A DNA stretch of 64,000 nt. It comes from Escherichia phage vB_EcoM_JNE01. Position 1 is the first letter of the stretch, and every line of letters starts with the position of its first letter. The notes below the pieces were generated by a model. That model searched no databases and was not told the origin of the DNA. It saw only the letters and a list, made by a program, of their open reading frames with translations. The translations under genes and the position numbers were made by a program. Positions 20,946 to 37,625 of this stretch are shown here, piece after piece. The stretch is from sequence record OR670491; one strand, given 5' to 3'.

Positions 20946-20977
20946 GCAGTTTACAAATCTTTACAATTGCCGGTATT

Positions 20978-21005
20978 GACTTATTTTGTCAGTACTGGCA
21001 TAATG
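20978..21005 (+). promoter_or_regulatory. promoter (TTGACT-N17-CATAAT with upstream TG) reading into the CCCATAGGGTGC box
   Basis: ttgacttattttgtcagtactggcataat; box at about 21031. Confidence 0.5.
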
Positions 21006-21009
21006 TATT

Positions 21010-21165
21010 CATTGGCAGATAAGCCGTAGCCCATAGGGTGCGGGAGTGTATCTATAGAAAAATTAGTTTAGTATAGTTACAATTGTGCACCCGGTGGGTT
21101 AGCTGTTGTCATGGGGTATATTATGCCAGTACTTGATAATTCTGTCAATACTTTTTTTTTACTAT
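21010..21165. ncRNA. candidate convergently transcribed non-coding locus (plus- and minus-strand promoters facing each other across inverted CCCAYMGGGTGC boxes)
   Basis: plus promoter at 20978-21005; minus promoter at 21120-21148; no ORF; boxes at about 21031 and 21090 form an imperfect long inverted repeat; T9 run at about 21155. Confidence 0.3.
21120..21148 (-). promoter_or_regulatory. minus-strand promoter (TTGACA-N17-CATAAT)
   Basis: reverse complement reads ttgacagaattatcaagtactggcataat. Confidence 0.45.
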
Positions 21166-22944: not shown

Positions 22945-23046
22945 CGCGGGGAGATAATAACTCCCCGTTACTTTTTCAGTACTGAATCATTTAATAGACG
23001 GATCTCGGCACCCGGTGGGTTAGTGACTGTTTCGTCTTGATGTAGT
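22945..23046 (-). ncRNA. candidate minus-strand small RNA with CCCACCGGGTGC box, ending at a bidirectional hairpin
   Basis: minus-strand promoter at 23048-23076; no ORF; hairpin ggggag-ataataa-ctcccc at about 22947-22968 also terminates plus-strand gene 22720..22941. Confidence 0.3.
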
Positions 23047-26986: not shown

Positions 26987-27067
26987 TACTTGCAATTAGT
27001 TTTTAGTACTGTATAATAGTTTACATGAAGGGGAGAAATGATTCTCCCCAATAACAGGAGAATCAAA

Positions 27068-27220
27068 ATGAAACAATACAACGCTCGGTTTGATGTTACT
27101 ATCGGTAACGGCAAAGGTCAATTCTCTTTCAGTACTCGCAAAAGTTATACAGAAAACTTCCTGCGTAATTGTGCACTGACCGCCGCTCAAATTAAACATT
27201 ACTTTCAGGCTAAAAAATGA
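27068..27220 (+). CDS. small hypothetical protein
   Basis: start MKQYNAR after promoter/hairpin and AGGAG RBS; track ORF begins upstream at 27038. Confidence 0.5.
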   Translation: MKQYNARFDVTIGNGKGQFSFSTRKSYTENFLRNCALTAAQIKHYFQAKK

Positions 27221-27306
27221 AAACATTAGCTTACTATAGTTCGGCCCTGGTCGGTGCATTGATCGCGGCGTTGTTAGTAACCTATCTATTCTTTATGGTG
27301 ATTTAA
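27217..27306 (+). CDS. small hydrophobic peptide (29 aa), possible membrane peptide
   Basis: hand-translated ORF MKTLAYYSSALVGALIAALLVTYLFFMVI; ATGA-coupled on both sides. Confidence 0.3.
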   Translation: MKTLAYYSSALVGALIAALLVTYLFFMVI

Positions 27307-27450
27307 ATGAATCCAACAGGTTTAAACTATAAAAGTTGTTCGGCGTTTACGAAAGCAAATAAAGCGAATGCACGTAAAGCGAAAGTACAAGAATACATCA
27401 AGCAAGGCATGACGCGAAAGGCGGCGATTCTAAAAGCTAAAAATAAATGA
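27307..27450 (+). CDS. small lysine-rich basic protein (47 aa)
   Basis: hand-translated ORF coupled to upstream peptide. Confidence 0.3.
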   Translation: MNPTGLNYKSCSAFTKANKANARKAKVQEYIKQGMTRKAAILKAKNK

Positions 27451-27560
27451 AAAAAGTGGTTGACTCCGGTCAGCCATTTTGCTATTATATATTCATTGAG
27501 AGATAGCTCACTAGCCCACAGGGTGCATAAGTGTATCTATTATATGAGTATTGAGTACTG
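27451..27560 (+). promoter_or_regulatory. repeat module: hairpin with embedded TTGACT -35, TATTAT -10, CCCACAGGGTGC box
   Basis: one of four full copies (also about 31468-31575, 34741-34850, 37487-37625). Confidence 0.5.
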
Positions 27561-27671
27561 AAAACTATTTTAAAAGTATTTGTAGAAAGTACTTGCAAAC
27601 TATCTCAATAAGCGTATAATGTTTTACATCGAAAGGGGAAACGGTTTCCCCTGATAATAAGGAAACAAATC

Positions 27672-28013
27672 ATGACTATCTCAATTGCTCAATCTAACTT
27701 TGAAAACGAAATCATCGCCCAGGCACTGCGTTTAAATGATGGTCGGGCCGAAATTAATTACGGTTTCAATTCAGGCGGTTGTGAAAAATATCAGTACTTT
27801 GTAACGGCTGATGGCGGTGTCCTGGGTATCAATACAGTTATTGTAAACATCCAAAAAATTAATTTCAATGATCCAGACGATAGCCAGTTTTACATCACTG
27901 GCGTAGACGTGAACTATGAGGATGACTCACTAACTGATGATCACACTGGTGAGAAGTTAGAGAGTGCATACGGTGAAGATGATTATCAGTCAGTACCGGA
28001 AGATTTTGAATAA
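27672..28013 (+). CDS. hypothetical acidic protein
   Basis: ORF from track after promoter + aggggaaacggtttcccct hairpin; acidic C-terminal third. Confidence 0.55.
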   Translation: MTISIAQSNFENEIIAQALRLNDGRAEINYGFNSGGCEKYQYFVTADGGVLGINTVIVNIQKINFNDPDDSQFYITGVDVNYEDDSLTDDHTGEKLESAYGEDDYQSVPEDFE

Positions 28014-28027
28014 TATTAAAAAAATAG

Positions 28028-28086
28028 TTTGACAATAGATTATAGTACTGTATAATAGTTTACATCAAGGGGAGAAAAACTTCTCC
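28028..28086 (+). promoter_or_regulatory. early promoter (TTGACA-N16-TATAAT) + 5' stem-loop (ggggagaaaaacttctcccc)
   Basis: read directly. Confidence 0.6.
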
Positions 28087-28110
28087 CCACTAACAGAGAG
28101 AGAAAACAAA

Positions 28111-28323
28111 ATGGCTAATATCTGCACTGTACTGAAAAATGCAAAACAAGTTTTATTTTCTGATCACGATCATTTAAACAAGGATATTACTGGCGTTCGG
28201 AATATCAAAGATGTAAAAAGTGTTATGGGTATCTATTGCAATATGAAACGTGTTGGAACGTTCGGCGACAAAGTACTATACCAGGCAGGGGATTACAATT
28301 TTACACTGACTATCATTAACTAA
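28111..28323 (+). CDS. hypothetical early protein
   Basis: ORF from track. Confidence 0.55.
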   Translation: MANICTVLKNAKQVLFSDHDHLNKDITGVRNIKDVKSVMGIYCNMKRVGTFGDKVLYQAGDYNFTLTIIN

Positions 28324-28415
28324 AAATATATTACCAGTACTATTAAATCTATTGACAACGTTTGATAGTACTGACATAATAACTTTTATCAACTACACTA
28401 CTAAGGAATTAAAAA

Positions 28416-28595
28416 ATGGCTATCATCGCAAAAACTGAAATCGTTGGTCTGGATTCTATCATCATGACGTTTGAAGATCAAAAAGGTATGTATGTAGTTT
28501 CATATGGTGATTATGTTCGGGAGTATGAAACGGTAGACGAAGCCTTTGAAAGTTATATTCGCCAGGTGAATAAAGCATACGACGACTACCGCTAA
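28416..28595 (+). CDS. small hypothetical protein (59 aa)
   Basis: hand-translated ORF after ttgacaacgtttgatagtactgacataat promoter and AAGGAA RBS. Confidence 0.45.
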   Translation: MAIIAKTEIVGLDSIIMTFEDQKGMYVVSYGDYVREYETVDEAFESYIRQVNKAYDDYR

Positions 28596-28685
28596 AATAT
28601 ATTACCAGTGCTATTGACAAAGTTTGATAGTACTGTATAATAAGTTTTATAAACAGTAGTTAACTTAACCTAAGAGAGAAATAAA

Positions 28686-28829
28686 ATGATCGCACTGGAT
28701 TCATTCATCGACGCAGTACTGGCAAAAACTGGCGAGGATCTGACCGCAGAACAATACGCGATGATCGAGCAATGTCAGCAAAACGGTAAATCGGTGAAAG
28801 ATACTGTTAAGATTATCCGCAAGATGTAA
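28686..28829 (+). CDS. small hypothetical protein (47 aa)
   Basis: hand-translated ORF after ttgacaaagtttgatagtactgtataat promoter. Confidence 0.45.
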   Translation: MIALDSFIDAVLAKTGEDLTAEQYAMIEQCQQNGKSVKDTVKIIRKM

Positions 28830-28836
28830 GATTATA

Positions 28837-28866
28837 GCCCACTGGTTAACGCTGGTGGGCTTTAAT
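28837..28866 (+). terminator. hairpin terminator containing a Chi octamer
   Basis: gcccac-tggttaacgctg-gtgggc then TTTAATCCTTT; GCTGGTGG lies in the loop/3' arm. Confidence 0.45.
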
Positions 28867-28928
28867 CCTTTACCCTATACAATGCCAGTACTCAACCGTT
28901 TATCTCGTTAGAATGCGTTACAGGACGT

Positions 28929-29132
28929 TTGACAATGATTAGCATGAAATCAGTACAAAAACAAATAGAAACATTATCAAAAATTAAACGTAAACAGTAC
29001 TCGTTAGAATATACAATCAATGGTAACTATCATCTAATGAAAGAGAATAATTTTATCGTCATTGATGAATCATTGCAAGTTATTAGTATAGTACTGAAAG
29101 CATTAATCAATGACAGAAAAAAATTAAAATAA
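28929..29132 (+). CDS. hypothetical protein (uncertain start)
   Basis: track ORF with TTG start and no clear RBS. Confidence 0.3.
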   Translation: MTMISMKSVQKQIETLSKIKRKQYSLEYTINGNYHLMKENNFIVIDESLQVISIVLKALINDRKKLK

Positions 29133-29136
29133 TCTA

Positions 29137-29165
29137 TTGACAATATCCTCCAGTACTGGCATAAT
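29137..29165 (+). promoter_or_regulatory. promoter (TTGACA-N17-CATAAT) heading a long leader with CCCATAGGGTGC box
   Basis: ttgacaatatcctccagtactggcataat; about 300-nt leader before gene 29462. Confidence 0.55.
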
Positions 29166-29221
29166 ACTTACATCAAGACGAGAACGTCGCTAACCCATAG
29201 GGTGCACAAATGTAACTATAT

Positions 29222-29300
29222 AATATCGATCAATAAATGATCAAAAAAGTACTGGATCAATTTAGCATAAGGCGTATAATTCTGATCAATTCTTGATCAA
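29222..29300. promoter_or_regulatory. cluster of five GATC sites (tgatcaa-type repeats) around a TATAAT element upstream of the TraR/DksA-like gene
   Basis: GATC at about 29228, 29239, 29255, 29284, 29295, as cgatcaat / tgatcaaa / ggatcaat / tgatcaat / tgatcaaa. Confidence 0.5.
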
Positions 29301-29461
29301 AGGCAATATACGCAGTTGAATTTATATAGACAGTACAAAGGCGTTACTATCCGTGGTAATGCTGGTGGATATGTAGTATCATATGGTTTGAATAAGATAA
29401 ACACTAGTAGTATTATTGTAGCATTACAGTACTATAGTATTTTTATAATGAGGTTAAAATA

Positions 29462-29719
29462 ATGGCAGTAGGATACGCGAAAGACGGGGCCGAACAAGAC
29501 GAGATTCACGCAGTGATTCAGGCCGCCGTTAACCACGCTAGAAAGCAAATTAACGCACAAAGAGAATCACTGGTACATTGCCTCGACTGCGGCGATAAAA
29601 TCCCTGAGAATCGACGCCAGGCCGTTATAGGGTGCATGTATTGTATTACTTGCCAGGAGGATCATGATAGTACTTTTAAAAGAGATCCGCGTAATTGTTG
29701 GCATAGATCTATGAGATAA
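29462..29719 (+). CDS. TraR/DksA-family C4 zinc-finger protein (putative RNA polymerase-binding regulator)
   Basis: CLDCGDKIPENRRQAVIGCMYCITCQ matches the TraR/DksA zinc-finger pattern CxxC...IPxxR...CxxCQ; 85 aa; GAGG RBS. Confidence 0.65.
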   Translation: MAVGYAKDGAEQDEIHAVIQAAVNHARKQINAQRESLVHCLDCGDKIPENRRQAVIGCMYCITCQEDHDSTFKRDPRNCWHRSMR

Positions 29720-29725
29720 AAAGTA

Positions 29726-29753
29726 TTGACAGTACTGAAAGATAGTGTATAAT
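29726..29753 (+). promoter_or_regulatory. early promoter (TTGACA-N16-TATAAT)
   Basis: ttgacagtactgaaagatagtgtataat. Confidence 0.6.
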
Positions 29754-29782
29754 GTTTTATATCTTAACTGAGGATAGTAATC

Positions 29783-30139
29783 ATGGGAATACAACATATC
29801 ACGCGTACTACTGACAATGGCGAGATCACTGGTTATCAGGTACAGGGCAAAGTAGCACAATTGCAGTACTGGTTTGTTAAACGTGGAATCATTGCACCGG
29901 ATCTTGATTATGACCGTGTAGCGTTTATTGATTCTCTTTATGTTGATCCTGATAGTCGGGGCAATGGTGAAGGTAACGAATTAATGAATGCCTTTATTGA
30001 TGCCGCCGATGATTCAGATTGTATCATCTTAGAATGCGATACGGGAGAAGATAACGCCTTTAATCTTAAAGAATGGTACGAAGGTTTCGGATTCGAGGTA
30101 CTGATCGATAGTGAATATCCTATCATGATTTTATCATAG
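29783..30139 (+). CDS. hypothetical early protein
   Basis: ORF from track with GAGGA RBS. Confidence 0.55.
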   Translation: MGIQHITRTTDNGEITGYQVQGKVAQLQYWFVKRGIIAPDLDYDRVAFIDSLYVDPDSRGNGEGNELMNAFIDAADDSDCIILECDTGEDNAFNLKEWYEGFGFEVLIDSEYPIMILS

Positions 30140-30217
30140 TACTTGCATTTAGTTTTCAGTACTGTTATAGTACTTGCATCAAGGGGAAACATCTTCCCCT
30201 ACTAAGAGGAAATAAAA

Positions 30218-30406
30218 ATGGAAAACTTATCAAGTATTTTAGTACAAGATGATTTCGGTAATCCTGGAAGTGCTATCATTGTTCGGGGCAATAAAGCAAC
30301 GTTTGTTATTGCTGGTGGACCCGTACAGCGTAGCATTAAAAATAATGCTGTTACCATTAATAATGTACGCTATCGCTTAGATAAAGAATTAATTCATAAA
30401 CTGTAA
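30218..30406 (+). CDS. small hypothetical protein
   Basis: ORF after promoter + aggggaaacatcttcccct hairpin. Confidence 0.5.
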   Translation: MENLSSILVQDDFGNPGSAIIVRGNKATFVIAGGPVQRSIKNNAVTINNVRYRLDKELIHKL

Positions 30407-30433
30407 TATTAATTTAATAGAGGATAACAATAA

Positions 30434-30757
30434 ATGTACATTCATACTACTATCACAAAGGAAGTCCGTTGCCAGTTCGAAAGTATTCCGGGCGTATGTT
30501 TCATCACTGGTACGTTTTCCCCTGGTGATCGTGATAATCCAGTACTGTTACAATTACGCCATCCATCATGGGATAAAGCATTTGATCTACCGTTGAATGA
30601 ATTCGCAACTACTGCTGAAAAGTACATTAAAAATATTCGCGAGAATGATCGACTATTCATTAATGCTTTTAGTGATGCCGCGTTAAGTGAGATCCATGCT
30701 GTATTGGTTGCAATCATGGAATCAATGGAGAAAACTATATTCAAACAAGGTGAATAA
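30434..30757 (+). CDS. hypothetical early protein
   Basis: ORF from track with GAGGA RBS. Confidence 0.55.
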   Translation: MYIHTTITKEVRCQFESIPGVCFITGTFSPGDRDNPVLLQLRHPSWDKAFDLPLNEFATTAEKYIKNIRENDRLFINAFSDAALSEIHAVLVAIMESMEKTIFKQGE

Positions 30758-30763
30758 AAACTA

Positions 30764-30822
30764 TTGACAATGCAATCCAGTACTGTATAATAGTTTACAT
30801 GAAGGAGAGAAATGATTCTCCC
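30764..30822 (+). promoter_or_regulatory. early promoter (TTGACA-N16-TATAAT) + 5' stem-loop (gagagaaatgattctc)
   Basis: read directly. Confidence 0.6.
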
Positions 30823-30840
30823 CACTAAGAGGAAAGAAAA

Positions 30841-31053
30841 ATGCAAGGTCAACTAATCGTTCGTAAATGGTCTGATACTAACGAAAAACCGTGGGATGTA
30901 CAATACATCGCCCCAAATGGTGAATCCAGATATCAACCAGGTGTAACGCATAGTACTGAGCAATTCGCCGCCGCTCATCGCGAACGTCTGTTACAATCAA
31001 TGCAGCAAGGTTCCGGTGAAAAATTCATTCAGGATCATTGGCTGAAAGATTAA
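30841..31053 (+). CDS. hypothetical early protein
   Basis: ORF from track. Confidence 0.55.
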   Translation: MQGQLIVRKWSDTNEKPWDVQYIAPNGESRYQPGVTHSTEQFAAAHRERLLQSMQQGSGEKFIQDHWLKD

Positions 31054-31139
31054 AAAGTACTTGCACAGTACTGAATAAAGTGTATAATGTTTTATATCGG
31101 AAGGGGAATAGTTCCCCTCCGAACAAAGAGGAAAGTATA

Positions 31140-31313
31140 ATGGTCCAGGTAGAATTAACAGTACTGAAAGATCTGTTTTATCGGATTGGTACTACTGGCG
31201 AATATCCGAAGGGTGATAATGCAAAACTTTACGTATCACTCGACTTATGGCAACGCGAACAATTAGCAACGGCCTGGCGTAAAGGCAAAGCAGATAGCGA
31301 GGTGAAAGCATGA
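31140..31313 (+). CDS. small hypothetical protein
   Basis: track ORF 31038..31313 begins with TTG inside promoter; ATG MVQVELT after AGAGGAAAG RBS at 31140. Confidence 0.5.
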   Translation: MVQVELTVLKDLFYRIGTTGEYPKGDNAKLYVSLDLWQREQLATAWRKGKADSEVKA

Positions 31314-31459
31314 AAGAATTCTTATTTGAAGTAGTGTTTCAAGGTGTCGGTAATAACCAACTGATTCGATCAAGTGGTTATAATGTTAACCAGGCATGGA
31401 ATAACATTAAACAAATGTACCCGAACGCTATCACATATCGCAACCCGAAAGAAGTTTAA
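31310..31459 (+). CDS. small hypothetical protein (49 aa)
   Basis: hand-translated ORF, ATGA-coupled to upstream gene. Confidence 0.35.
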   Translation: MKEFLFEVVFQGVGNNQLIRSSGYNVNQAWNNIKQMYPNAITYRNPKEV

Positions 31460-31467
31460 AAATAATT

Positions 31468-31575
31468 GAAAAAGGGATTGACTCCGGTCAGTCCCTTTGT
31501 TATTATATACGCATAGAAACAAATTAGCCCACCGGGTGCATAAATGTATCTATTGTTTGCTGGTGGCTAGTACTG
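31468..31575 (+). promoter_or_regulatory. repeat module: hairpin gggattgactccggtcagtccc with embedded -35, TATTAT -10, CCCACCGGGTGC box, Chi octamer
   Basis: copy of the 27451-27560 module; GCTGGTGG at about 31559. Confidence 0.5.
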
Positions 31576-31631
31576 AAAACTATTTTTAAAAAGTACTTGC
31601 ATTGTACTTAGAATCAAGTATAATGTTTTAC

Positions 31632-31760
31632 ATCAGGACGGGGAACGAAATAAGTAACCCCGTTAAGTAGTCCAGGAGTAAGACATACGAAAAACTCCCC
31701 TGATAAAATAGTTTGACAATAGAAAGTAAACGAGTATAATACTTACATCAACCACTGATA
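31632..31760 (+). promoter_or_regulatory. conserved about 90-nt leader between tandem promoters (copy of 21228-21345)
   Basis: caggacggggaacgaaataagtaaccccgttaagtagtccaggagtaagacatacgaaaaactcccctgataaaatagtttgacaa. Confidence 0.5.
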
Positions 31761-31773
31761 AGGAAACATAAAA

Positions 31774-32049
31774 ATGCGGATTCTACTGACAGCTAACGAA
31801 ATCGAACAAGTACTGACTACTAATCTGGAACAATGGAAACGTGAAGCAGATATCCAGGCGGTTCAATGCCTTAACGATAAGTTAACGCCAGATGACTTAA
31901 GCACGATTGTTGATCCACAATTTTATGAAGATATTCACGACACGTCTTTAAGCGTCGAGGATGTACTTGATAAGCACTACATTGATACTGATTTACATGT
32001 TTACGGTCGTAAAAACTTTATCACTATTCACGACATTTACAATACTTAA
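31774..32049 (+). CDS. hypothetical early protein
   Basis: ORF from track. Confidence 0.55.
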   Translation: MRILLTANEIEQVLTTNLEQWKREADIQAVQCLNDKLTPDDLSTIVDPQFYEDIHDTSLSVEDVLDKHYIDTDLHVYGRKNFITIHDIYNT

Positions 32050-34740: not shown

Positions 34741-34850
34741 TAAAAAAAGGGATTGACTCCGGTCAGTCCCTTTGCTATTATATATCCATTGAGAGATAAC
34801 TCACTGACCCATAGGGTGCGGAAGTGTATCTATTATATAAGTATTCAGTA
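34741..34850 (+). promoter_or_regulatory. repeat module: hairpin with embedded -35, TATTAT -10, CCCATAGGGTGC box (copy of 27451-27560)
   Basis: gggattgactccggtcagtccctttgctattatat...gacccatagggtgcggaagtgtatc. Confidence 0.5.
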
Positions 34851-37486: not shown

Positions 37487-37625
37487 AGAATAAAAAAAGG
37501 GATTGACTCCGGTCAGTCCCTTTGCTATTATATACGCATAGACAAAAACTAGCCCACAGGGTGCATAGGTGTATCCAAAATATATAGTTAATAACGGTGA
37601 GTAACTATCTGCTGGTGGAACTAAA
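37487..37625 (+). promoter_or_regulatory. repeat module: hairpin with embedded -35, TATTAT -10, CCCACAGGGTGC box, Chi octamer
   Basis: copy of 27451-27560 module; GCTGGTGG at about 37611. Confidence 0.5.

Follow-up and report, generated by a model that had tools for sequence, protein, structure and literature searches.

Paired GATC sites at the predicted promoter of a small early gene in an Asteriusvirus-type jumbo coliphage

A 330-bp early cassette with five GATC sites

A 64,000-nucleotide (nt) stretch of the Escherichia phage vB_EcoM_JNE01 genome (sequence record OR670491; here, the window) contains a cluster of five GATC tetramers (i.e., the site of the Dam methylase of enterobacteria) directly upstream of a short open reading frame (ORF) encoding 48 amino acids (aa). 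The cluster and the 48-aa ORF lie in a 330-bp cassette (positions 29134 to 29463) that is missing in some relatives. The sequence comparisons described below suggest that the cluster is probably a functional cis-regulatory array of protein-binding sites that belongs to the 48-aa gene and its predicted promoters.

Positions 28850 to 29800 are 99% identical to Escherichia phages WPEC3, Ecwhy_1, and fEgEco12 and 89 to 95% identical to 121Q, PBECO4, and Salmonella relatives. Judged by these similarities, the window is from an Asteriusvirus-type jumbo coliphage, the relatives of which are jumbo myoviruses of 350 to 385 kb. The fEgEco12 counterpart of this segment is located at 10867 to 11817 of a record that begins at the physical end; position ~17984 of the window therefore corresponds to the left genome end. 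Genomes of this type carry fixed direct terminal repeats (20,668 bp in the relative Sharanji; PMC11895373), and the GATC locus lies ~11.2 kb inside the long direct terminal repeat (~20.7 kb). From 18 kb onward, all genes are small and on the plus strand, with perfect or near-perfect sigma70 promoters (TTGACA-16-TATAAT) ahead of most of them. On the basis of this organization, we regard the region from 18 kb onward as an early region predicted to use the host RNA polymerase.

The first-pass annotation of the window placed the cluster in the long leader of a gene for a DksA/TraR-type (i.e., DksA-like) protein at 29462 to 29719. This placement did not hold, because the conserved 48-aa ORF separates the cluster from the DksA-like gene. 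The stop codon of the former overlaps the start codon of the latter, which suggests translational coupling. Phages phAPEC6, UE-S1, and ph0011 match the flanks of the cassette without its middle; in phAPEC6, the stop codon of the upstream ORF overlaps the DksA-like ATG, and the alignment joins the left direct repeat straight to that ATG. In total, the cassette is missing from about 10 related phages, including these three, G17, and Sharanji.

Table 1. Features of the 330-bp cassette and its borders (positions in the window)
Feature	Position	Strand	Remarks
Direct repeat TTAAAATAAT, left copy (10 bp)	29124-29133		In-frame end (L K stop) of ORF 28929-29132
Predicted sigma70-type promoter P1, TTGACA-17-CATAAT, TG at -15/-14	29137-29165	+	Consensus scan, 11/12 positions
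Conserved box CTAACCCATAGGGTGCACAAATGTA (25 nt)	29190-29214	+	One of at least 9 promoter-proximal copies in the early region
Repeat unit 1, TATAAT-ATC-GATCAAT-AAAT-GATCAAA	29219-29245	+	-10-like hexamer, then pair A
Pair A GATCAATAAATGATC, two GATC 11 bp apart, inverted repeat	29228-29242		Centred at -52 of the predicted P2 start
Predicted -35 of promoter P2, TGGATC, containing GATC#3 (29255-29258)	29253-29258	+	16-bp spacer to TATAAT at 29275
Repeat unit 2, TATAAT-TCT-GATCAAT-TCTT-GATCAAA	29275-29301	+	P2 -10, then pair B
Pair B GATCAATTCTTGATC, two GATC 11 bp apart, inverted repeat	29284-29298		-3 to +12 of the predicted P2 start
48-aa gene, TTG start	29316-29462	+	121Q gp293 family (phrog_38664)
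Direct repeat TTAAAATAAT, right copy	29454-29463		End of 48-aa gene (Leu-Lys-stop) and next ATG, TAATG overlap
DksA/TraR-type C4 zinc-finger gene (85 aa)	29462-29719	+	PF01258, E = 3.7e-9; phrog_54

The five tetramers begin at 29228, 29239, 29255, 29284, and 29295 (i.e., spacings of 11, 16, 29, and 11 bp) and span 71 bp (29228 to 29298), as the first-pass annotation had described (five GATC in about 70 bp). The octamers that it quoted (cgatcaat, tgatcaaa, ggatcaat, tgatcaat, and tgatcaaa) are exact, and the TATAAT element that it noticed among the sites is located at 29275 to 29280, with a second TATAAT at 29219 to 29224. The window has exactly two occurrences of TATAAT-N3-GATCAA-N5-GATCAAA (29219 and 29275), and each pair of sites begins 3 bp past a TATAAT hexamer. 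Read from the sequence, the tetramers are the cores of a palindromic word, TGATCA(A), and the pairs have an 11-bp period. Since TGATCA is palindromic, each pair is an inverted repeat (GATCA-N5-TGATC; GATCAA-N3-TTGATC). These inverted-repeat sites overlap the predicted promoter of the 48-aa gene itself (P2; predicted start, ~29287): pair B covers the start site, pair A is centred upstream of it, GATC#1 and GATC#4 are at -3 to +1 of two -10 hexamers, and GATC#3 is in the predicted -35. The sequence AGTACTG lies between unit 1 and GATC#3. The array ends 17 nt upstream of the 48-aa gene by one count, with 14 nt between unit 2 and the ORF.

When compared with the background density of GATC, the cluster is the tightest five-site run of the window (the next tightest is 222 bp), in which GATC is under-represented (146 sites versus 183 +/- 14 in dinucleotide shuffles). 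For genome-wide statistics, we used the whole 348.5-kb genome of 121Q, where the five sites are identical and again form the tightest five-site cluster (71 bp; runner-up, 210 bp). This genome contains 620 GATC, compared with 1091 expected from base composition or 1182 expected from a Markov model. In scan-statistic simulations, the cluster had a p value of 0.004 under a homogeneous null and 0.02 under a null that keeps the GATC count of each 5-kb bin and so accounts for the GATC-rich early region. The excess by count alone is thus real but moderate, and it is the longer word, rather than the count, that makes the cluster convincing: all five sites read GATCAA[AT], although AA follows only 12% of the GATC in 121Q, and 5 of the 12 GATCAAW of the window are inside the cluster.

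Over most of the 121Q genome, GATC occurs ~16 times per 10 kb (i.e., about half of expectation; 0.55 genome-wide), whereas the first ~15 kb after the left end is at or above expectation (49 per 10 kb). The GATC-dense zone of the window is at 24 to 40 kb. A second intergenic pair with the same 11-bp period (GATCAAAAAATGATC) is found in 121Q at 215908, between gp466 and gp467. A scan of IMG/VR for exact TGATCAANNNNTGATCAA hit at least 120 unrelated contigs, none of them with the box, and we regard these hits as chance matches.

Conservation of the pairs with the 48-aa gene

Sequence comparisons identify the 48-aa ORF as a conserved gene. It is annotated in 121Q (gp293), PBECO4, and fEgEco12 and matches phrog_38664 end to end; the PBECO4 copy of the protein is 63% identical, with conservative changes and an intact frame, and the surrounding DNA is 79% identical. 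A word-indexed search with the single 48-aa sequence returned one protein, and a four-homologue profile was needed for more. By tblastn and profile search, further homologues were found in Erwinia phage Hallingskeid (CDS0009; 35% identical) and Pectobacterium phage CBB and among metagenomic sequences (nine proteins). An exhaustive phmmer search with the 48-aa protein returned only its close relative plus four long repetitive proteins with unrelated Pfam content, which we treated as spurious.

We recovered the DNA upstream of every 48-aa homologue and obtained a 10-sequence alignment over two clades, in which both GATC cores of pair A are invariant (site A1, GATCAA; site A2, TGATC) and the spacers are variable. 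All eight Hallingskeid-clade variants are organized alike, i.e., with a terminator hairpin with an embedded promoter, the box, pair A (TTGATCAAnnnnTGATCAA), the -35, pair B (GATCAATAATTGATC), the ribosome-binding site, and the gene. In this clade, the -35 of P2 is TTGACT or TTGACA with a 17-bp spacer, the AATAAT of pair B is the -10, and the GATC cores are invariant except for one site lost in one variant. The box itself is nearly invariant between Asteriusvirus and the Hallingskeid clade. The window and Hallingskeid are 88% identical over the 57 bp of the box and pair A, while the adjacent proteins are 35% identical; the noncoding block is therefore more constrained than the coding sequence.

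The positions of the sites differ among lineages in an orderly manner. Counted from the first site, the GATC offsets of the window are 0/11 and 56/67; the corresponding values are 0/11 and 16/27 for PBECO4 and 0/11 and 43/54 for the Hallingskeid clade. In the alignment, the Hallingskeid-clade counterpart of the window's pair B is GATCAATAATTGATC. An insertion of 12 bp in Asteriusvirus provided a new TATAAT, and pair B came to cover the start site instead of the -10. The TGGATC that contains GATC#3 aligns with TTGATC of PBECO4 and with the TTGACT/TTGACA -35 of the Hallingskeid clade. In PBECO4-type phages, pair B was lost and a new GATC was gained, and the resulting sites (0, 11, 16, and 27) again form two 11-bp pairs, the second of which sits over the -35 (TTGATC-16-TATAAT). 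In both clades, the centre of pair A is at -52 relative to the predicted start of P2, and the second pair is always over a core element of P2, which is the start site in the window, the -35 in PBECO4, and AATAAT (the -10) in the Hallingskeid clade. Two 11-bp GATC pairs are kept in every lineage in which the gene comes with the sites, and, from these alignments, we take the pair to be the unit of selection.

The sites and the 48-aa gene co-occur in ~27 Asteriusvirus records and in the eight Hallingskeid-clade variants, and they are jointly missing from phAPEC6, UE-S1, ph0011, and others. The gene that follows the 48-aa gene is DksA-like only in Asteriusvirus and differs in the Erwinia-phage (Hallingskeid) clade, which keeps the GATC pairs. 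Since the downstream gene differs between the clades, the array belongs to the 48-aa gene; this is predicted to be the gene directly controlled, rather than primarily the DksA-like gene that the first-pass annotation had proposed as the target.

The same comparisons make it very unlikely that the cluster has no function, i.e., that it is a product of chance or of neutral local duplication in an A+T-rich spacer. Such an origin would accord with the count-based p value, which is only 0.02 when the GATC-rich early region is taken into account, and with the duplicated appearance of units 1 and 2. However, the flanks of the GATC sites are nonrandom, the pairs are kept in a clade in which the adjacent protein is only 35% identical, and the second pair was re-created at a new place in PBECO4.

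Several other features were observed around these loci. In CBB, the homologue is an unannotated 49-codon ORF (16896 to 17045), and its start codon is within a 13-nt inverted repeat (AGTACTCGCATAG ... CTATGCGAGTACT), the left arm of which overlaps the -10. In Hallingskeid, an HNH endonuclease gene (PF14279 and PF01844; 2015 to 2443 of the stretch examined) is directly upstream of the box/GATC module, and this gene is missing from otherwise collinear metagenomic relatives. A promoter-like match on the reverse strand of the window (29244 to 29215) was rejected because it is not conserved in the Hallingskeid clade.

Candidate readers of the sites

The conserved TGATCAA word and the 11-bp pairing point to a sequence-specific dimeric protein, since Dam and SeqA need neither. 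Tentatively, we favor the cassette's own basic product as the reader of the sites, acting as a putative autorepressor; the isoelectric point (pI) of the 48-aa protein is 10.1 in the window and 9.3 to 10.1 across all clades. In this model, the GATC cluster would be the promoter-operator region of a small self-contained early cassette, and the pairs would be binding sites of a dimeric protein. RNA polymerase would be blocked when the pair at the start site is occupied (or, in other lineages, the pair at the -35 or -10), and the constant pair at -52 would add cooperativity. Such binding might determine when, or how strongly, the 48-aa gene is expressed, and the same would apply to the DksA-like gene in this phage. 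Because each site contains GATC, Dam methylation could conceivably modulate the binding, as it does for OxyR, Lrp, Fur, and HdfR at host promoters.

Several observations weigh against this model. The CBB-clade homologues have no TGATCAA sites, so the protein is not always accompanied by them; their promoter (TTGACA-17-TATAGT) lies inside another inverted repeat, which extends to the start codon. Invariant GATC cores, combined with flanks that vary in about one-quarter of the sites (GATCtg, GATCtc, and GATCac), would equally fit a reader of GATC only. Units 1 and 2 are probably a duplication, so that the identity of their flanks is not independent evidence, and the predicted -35 of P2 is weak in the window (3/6 positions). 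Finally, the fold-based lead for the 48-aa protein as a DNA-binding protein is weak. An AlphaFold2 model built on a 12-sequence alignment (predicted local distance difference test score [pLDDT], 88.8) has four strands and a C-terminal helix; Foldseek found nothing for it in PDB, and its BFVD matches were uncharacterized small phage proteins only. A Pfam search with the 48-aa protein (E <=0.1) gave no family, AP2-type families included, and a profile search against PDB sequences gave only spurious beta-propeller matches. On the side of the model, together with this predicted fold and the basic pI, a basic residue of strand 2 (R/K versus A/S) is among the positions that distinguish the GATC-bearing clades from the CBB clade.

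The hosts are Dam+ enterobacteria, and the array might instead be a sensor of methylation state, with the GATC pairs being read by host SeqA, RNA polymerase, or both, according to their Dam methylation; we consider this possible but less likely than binding by the cassette's product. Fully methylated infecting DNA would be transcribed, and after the first replication the hemimethylated pairs would bind SeqA dimers, which would sequester P2 and the box-proximal promoter, such that expression of the cassette would be confined to parental genomes. SeqA dimers recognize tandem hemimethylated GATC located on the same side of the DNA, and the binding assays used spacings of 5 to 34 bp (PMC2691817). 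In each of the two 11-bp pairs, the GATC sites are separated by 7 bp (about one helical turn) and face the same side, a geometry compatible with SeqA dimers. The invariance of the GATC cores over two clades and the placement of GATC within a predicted -35 and at -3 to +1 of two -10 hexamers also fit this alternative. In addition, 121Q gp417, a predicted methyltransferase encoded outside the window, is in the Dam family PF05869 (E = 7e-32), which has GATC-specific relatives, and shows ~32% identity to the Dam proteins of Stx phages and T1-like phages, and the genome-wide level of GATC (0.55 of expectation) suggests selection on GATC in the phage. In contrast, the TGATCAA flanks and exactly two 11-bp pairs are conserved even though Dam and SeqA require neither, and the cassette is dispensable, being missing from about 10 relatives. 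None of the ~30 other strong early promoters in the window has GATC between -50 and +20. This distinction of the locus counts for the autorepressor model and for the sensor, but it also counts against the sensor, since SeqA would then not be a general shut-off of early genes. The first-pass annotation had likened the cluster both to methylation-sensitive promoters and to SeqA-bound origins; the promoter part stood to the extent that the cluster is nonrandom, conserved, and overlaps predicted promoter elements, whereas the origin analogy failed (see below). Our literature search found no promoter, GATC, or methylation analysis for Asteriusvirus.

A stricter form of this idea, which we consider somewhat doubtful, is a methylation clock in which the early promoter fires only from the infecting, fully methylated genome and is sequestered by SeqA or by a methylation-sensitive phage protein after one round of copying. 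If true, it would represent an epigenetic switch between parental and progeny genomes in a virulent phage with its own Dam-family enzyme. The 48-aa product and SeqA/Dam could both be involved, since many Dam-regulated promoters use regulators with GATC-containing sites. As single readers, we rank the 48-aa product first, SeqA/Dam second, and the host protein Fis third.

Fis is an unlikely reader. Each GATCA-N5-TGATC pair would be a 15-bp Fis core, the site at -52 would activate and that at +4 would repress transcription, and the cassette and the DksA-like gene would be tied to the growth state of the host. However, -52 is not a usual activating position. Pair A fits the Fis core consensus GNtYAaWWWtTRaNC (PMC2816674) and is the only GNTYAWWWWWTRANC match in the window and one of three in 121Q, where GATCAAAAAATGATC is another of the three; pair B of the Hallingskeid clade fits the consensus by inspection, the scan having covered the window and 121Q only. 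On the other hand, a C interrupts the A/T core of pair B in the window, so that this pair does not match even a loose Fis pattern, and most copies of pair A in the Hallingskeid clade have a G in the core. Any two TGATCA words with an 11-bp period would, in part, produce such a match automatically. Moreover, few matches to the Fis consensus are high-affinity sites (PMC2816674). Two other host regulators were considered and rejected: for IHF, the pairs give ATCAA-N4-TGA without the TTR of WATCAANNNNTTR, and there was no consensus match in 28900 to 29600; for FNR/CRP-type half-sites (TTGAT-N4-ATCAA), the spacing was judged unsuitable by eye.

Even less probable than Fis binding is a function at the RNA level, in which the pairs in P1 transcripts would fold as hairpins (UGAUCAAUUCUUGAUCA and GAUCAAUAAAUGAUC) that affect the stability, processing, or translation of the 48-aa gene, while P2 transcripts would lack them. 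The leader (29172 to 29330) folds at -32.7 kcal/mol (z = -2.5 versus shuffles), its minimum-energy structure includes the pair B hairpin, and the CBB-clade homologue has its 13-nt inverted repeat over the start codon. However, hairpins are a by-product of a repeated palindrome, for which a z value of -2.5 is expected, and the ribosome-binding site and start codon are outside them. There are no compensatory changes, since the arms are invariant, and no Rfam family matched (a search of 27000 to 32000 at E <=1 gave two irrelevant sub-threshold matches only). The second pair of PBECO4 is upstream of P2, which preserves its place with respect to the promoter but not its place in the RNA.

Least likely of all is a replication origin or a pac-like packaging signal built from the GATC repeats. 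The GATC-rich 13-mers of oriC, the GATC heptamers of phage P1 oriR, and the seven TGATCA/G hexamers of phage P1 pac, where methylation gates cleavage, bear a superficial resemblance to the cluster. As in SeqA sequestration of oriC and the dnaA promoter, GATC pairs are about one turn apart at a density far above background; as in phage P1 pac, the hexamer TGATCA is repeated in two groups. A strong predicted promoter (P1 of the cassette) lies upstream, as at the R-loop origins of T4, and this phage type encodes a T4-type replisome. Nevertheless, no DnaA box (<=1 mismatch), TTWTNCACA, oriC-type 13-mer (<=2 mismatches), or IHF core was found in 28900 to 29600, and there are only five sites. The GC skew changes sign at ~18 kb (i.e., the genome end) and not at 29 kb, the A+T content is unremarkable (73% versus 63% locally), and about 10 relatives dispense with the cassette; the first-pass analogy with a SeqA-bound origin is therefore not tenable. 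A phage P1-type pac site was also rejected, since the genomes have fixed terminal repeats, the cluster is ~11.2 kb inside the repeat rather than at an end, the terminase gene is far away in 121Q, and the cassette is dispensable.

Related systems and other features of the early region

P22 Arc/Mnt and lambda Cro are autoregulated small phage repressors with inverted-repeat operators over their own promoters. The putative operator in the cassette resembles these systems in having short inverted repeats one helical turn apart that overlap the start site, -10, or -35, two sites potentially able to cooperate, a gene for a small basic protein directly downstream, and joint inheritance of the sites and the gene in the Asteriusvirus and Hallingskeid clades. 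In contrast to them, the operator word contains a Dam site. At Dam-dependent promoters, regulators compete with Dam for GATC sites, as phage Mu mom illustrates for OxyR. Host examples are Salmonella opvAB with OxyR (PMC4856963), std with HdfR (PMC6735912), and sci1 with Fur (PMC3145626). The array shares with all four several GATC in repeated sites of a protein-binding type, helically phased and next to or over a promoter. However, no known host regulator motif (OxyR or Lrp) was recognized at the array, and the opvAB sites are 19 to 46 nt apart and upstream of the promoter, whereas the sites described here are 11 bp apart and on the core promoter. In addition, these systems give heritable phase variation in cells, while a lytic phage has no lineage to mark.

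T4-type promoter-early stem-loop (PeSL) cassettes consist of an early promoter and a stem-loop flanking small ORFs in hyperplastic regions. The cassette is similar in being a small early ORF with its own promoter, present or absent between collinear relatives, with junctions at short repeats, and neighboring units of the window have a terminator hairpin with an embedded -35 (27453 and 31471). It differs in that no hairpin encloses P1, a coding repeat of 10 bp (L K stop) forms the junction, and there is an extra operator-like array.

Thus, the kind of element is familiar (i.e., an operator array or a methylation-sensitive promoter), while our literature search found no account of this GATC array or of the 48-aa family. 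The early genes of Rak2/121Q-type jumbo phages are almost all of unknown function, and we found nothing published on their regulation. The locus offers a compact handle, comprising a cassette of 330 bp in which two or three promoters are predicted, a conserved arrangement of two site pairs, and a 48-aa candidate regulator, and its natural cassette-less relatives could be used as controls. Binding by the 48-aa product, if true, would establish a new family of phage DNA-binding proteins of very small size; methylation sensing, if true, would make the locus one of the rare examples of a virulent phage with Dam/SeqA logic. Either way, a phage DksA-like protein, which probably targets host RNA polymerase, would have its expression set by the cassette.

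The box (CCCAyNGGGTGC) occurs 27 to 35 nt downstream of a sigma70-type -10 in at least nine places of the early region (starts at 21030, 27515, 29194, 31528, 34808, and 37553 on the plus strand and at 23019, 21098, and 18869 on the minus strand) and also in Klebsiella, Erwinia, and metagenomic relatives. Every copy is followed by a -10-like TAwwwT. RNAalifold predicted only a 4-bp hairpin for it, (A/G)CCC-AyN-GGGU, and a subset of boxes has a 5' hairpin with swapped pairs (GAC/GUC, GUC/GAC, GAG/CUC, and GGC/GCC). No Rfam family was found for the box, and it is not a tRNA fragment, since ARAGORN found no tRNA in the window. Apart from 121Q itself and one 366-kb relative, the contigs hit in an IMG/VR scan for the GGGTGCACAAATGTA form of the box were unrelated. 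Some box units look like small-RNA genes, with a promoter, ~95 to 110 nt, and an intrinsic terminator in succession (e.g., 23094 to 22930 on the minus strand); such units are also present in two other sequences, at 1208 to 1345 in one and as three units in the other. At 20976 to 21150, two box units have promoters that face each other, such that their transcripts would overlap at the 3' ends, and this arrangement is conserved in EJP2 and G17.

The window also shows strong biases in other short words. AGTACT occurs 307 times in the window (21.5 expected; e.g., at 29152, 29248, 29428, and 29731) and 903 times in 121Q (118 expected), and CAGTACTG has 61 copies in the window (0.7 expected). AGTACT forms part of the spacer of most early promoters, directly 5' of the -10, and is found in coding DNA too, with the highest density in the early region. 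GCGC is wholly missing from both the window (66 expected) and the 348.5-kb 121Q genome (153 to 291 expected); CCGG, CGCG, and GGCC are depleted too, and 121Q encodes a C5 cytosine methyltransferase (gp91). Finally, terminator-like hairpins that hold the -35 (TTGACT) of the next promoter in the stem-loop, followed by TATTAT, are located at 27453 to 27488, 31471 to 31506, 34753 to 34781, and 37503 to 37531, and these units resemble the PeSL cassettes of T4-type phages.

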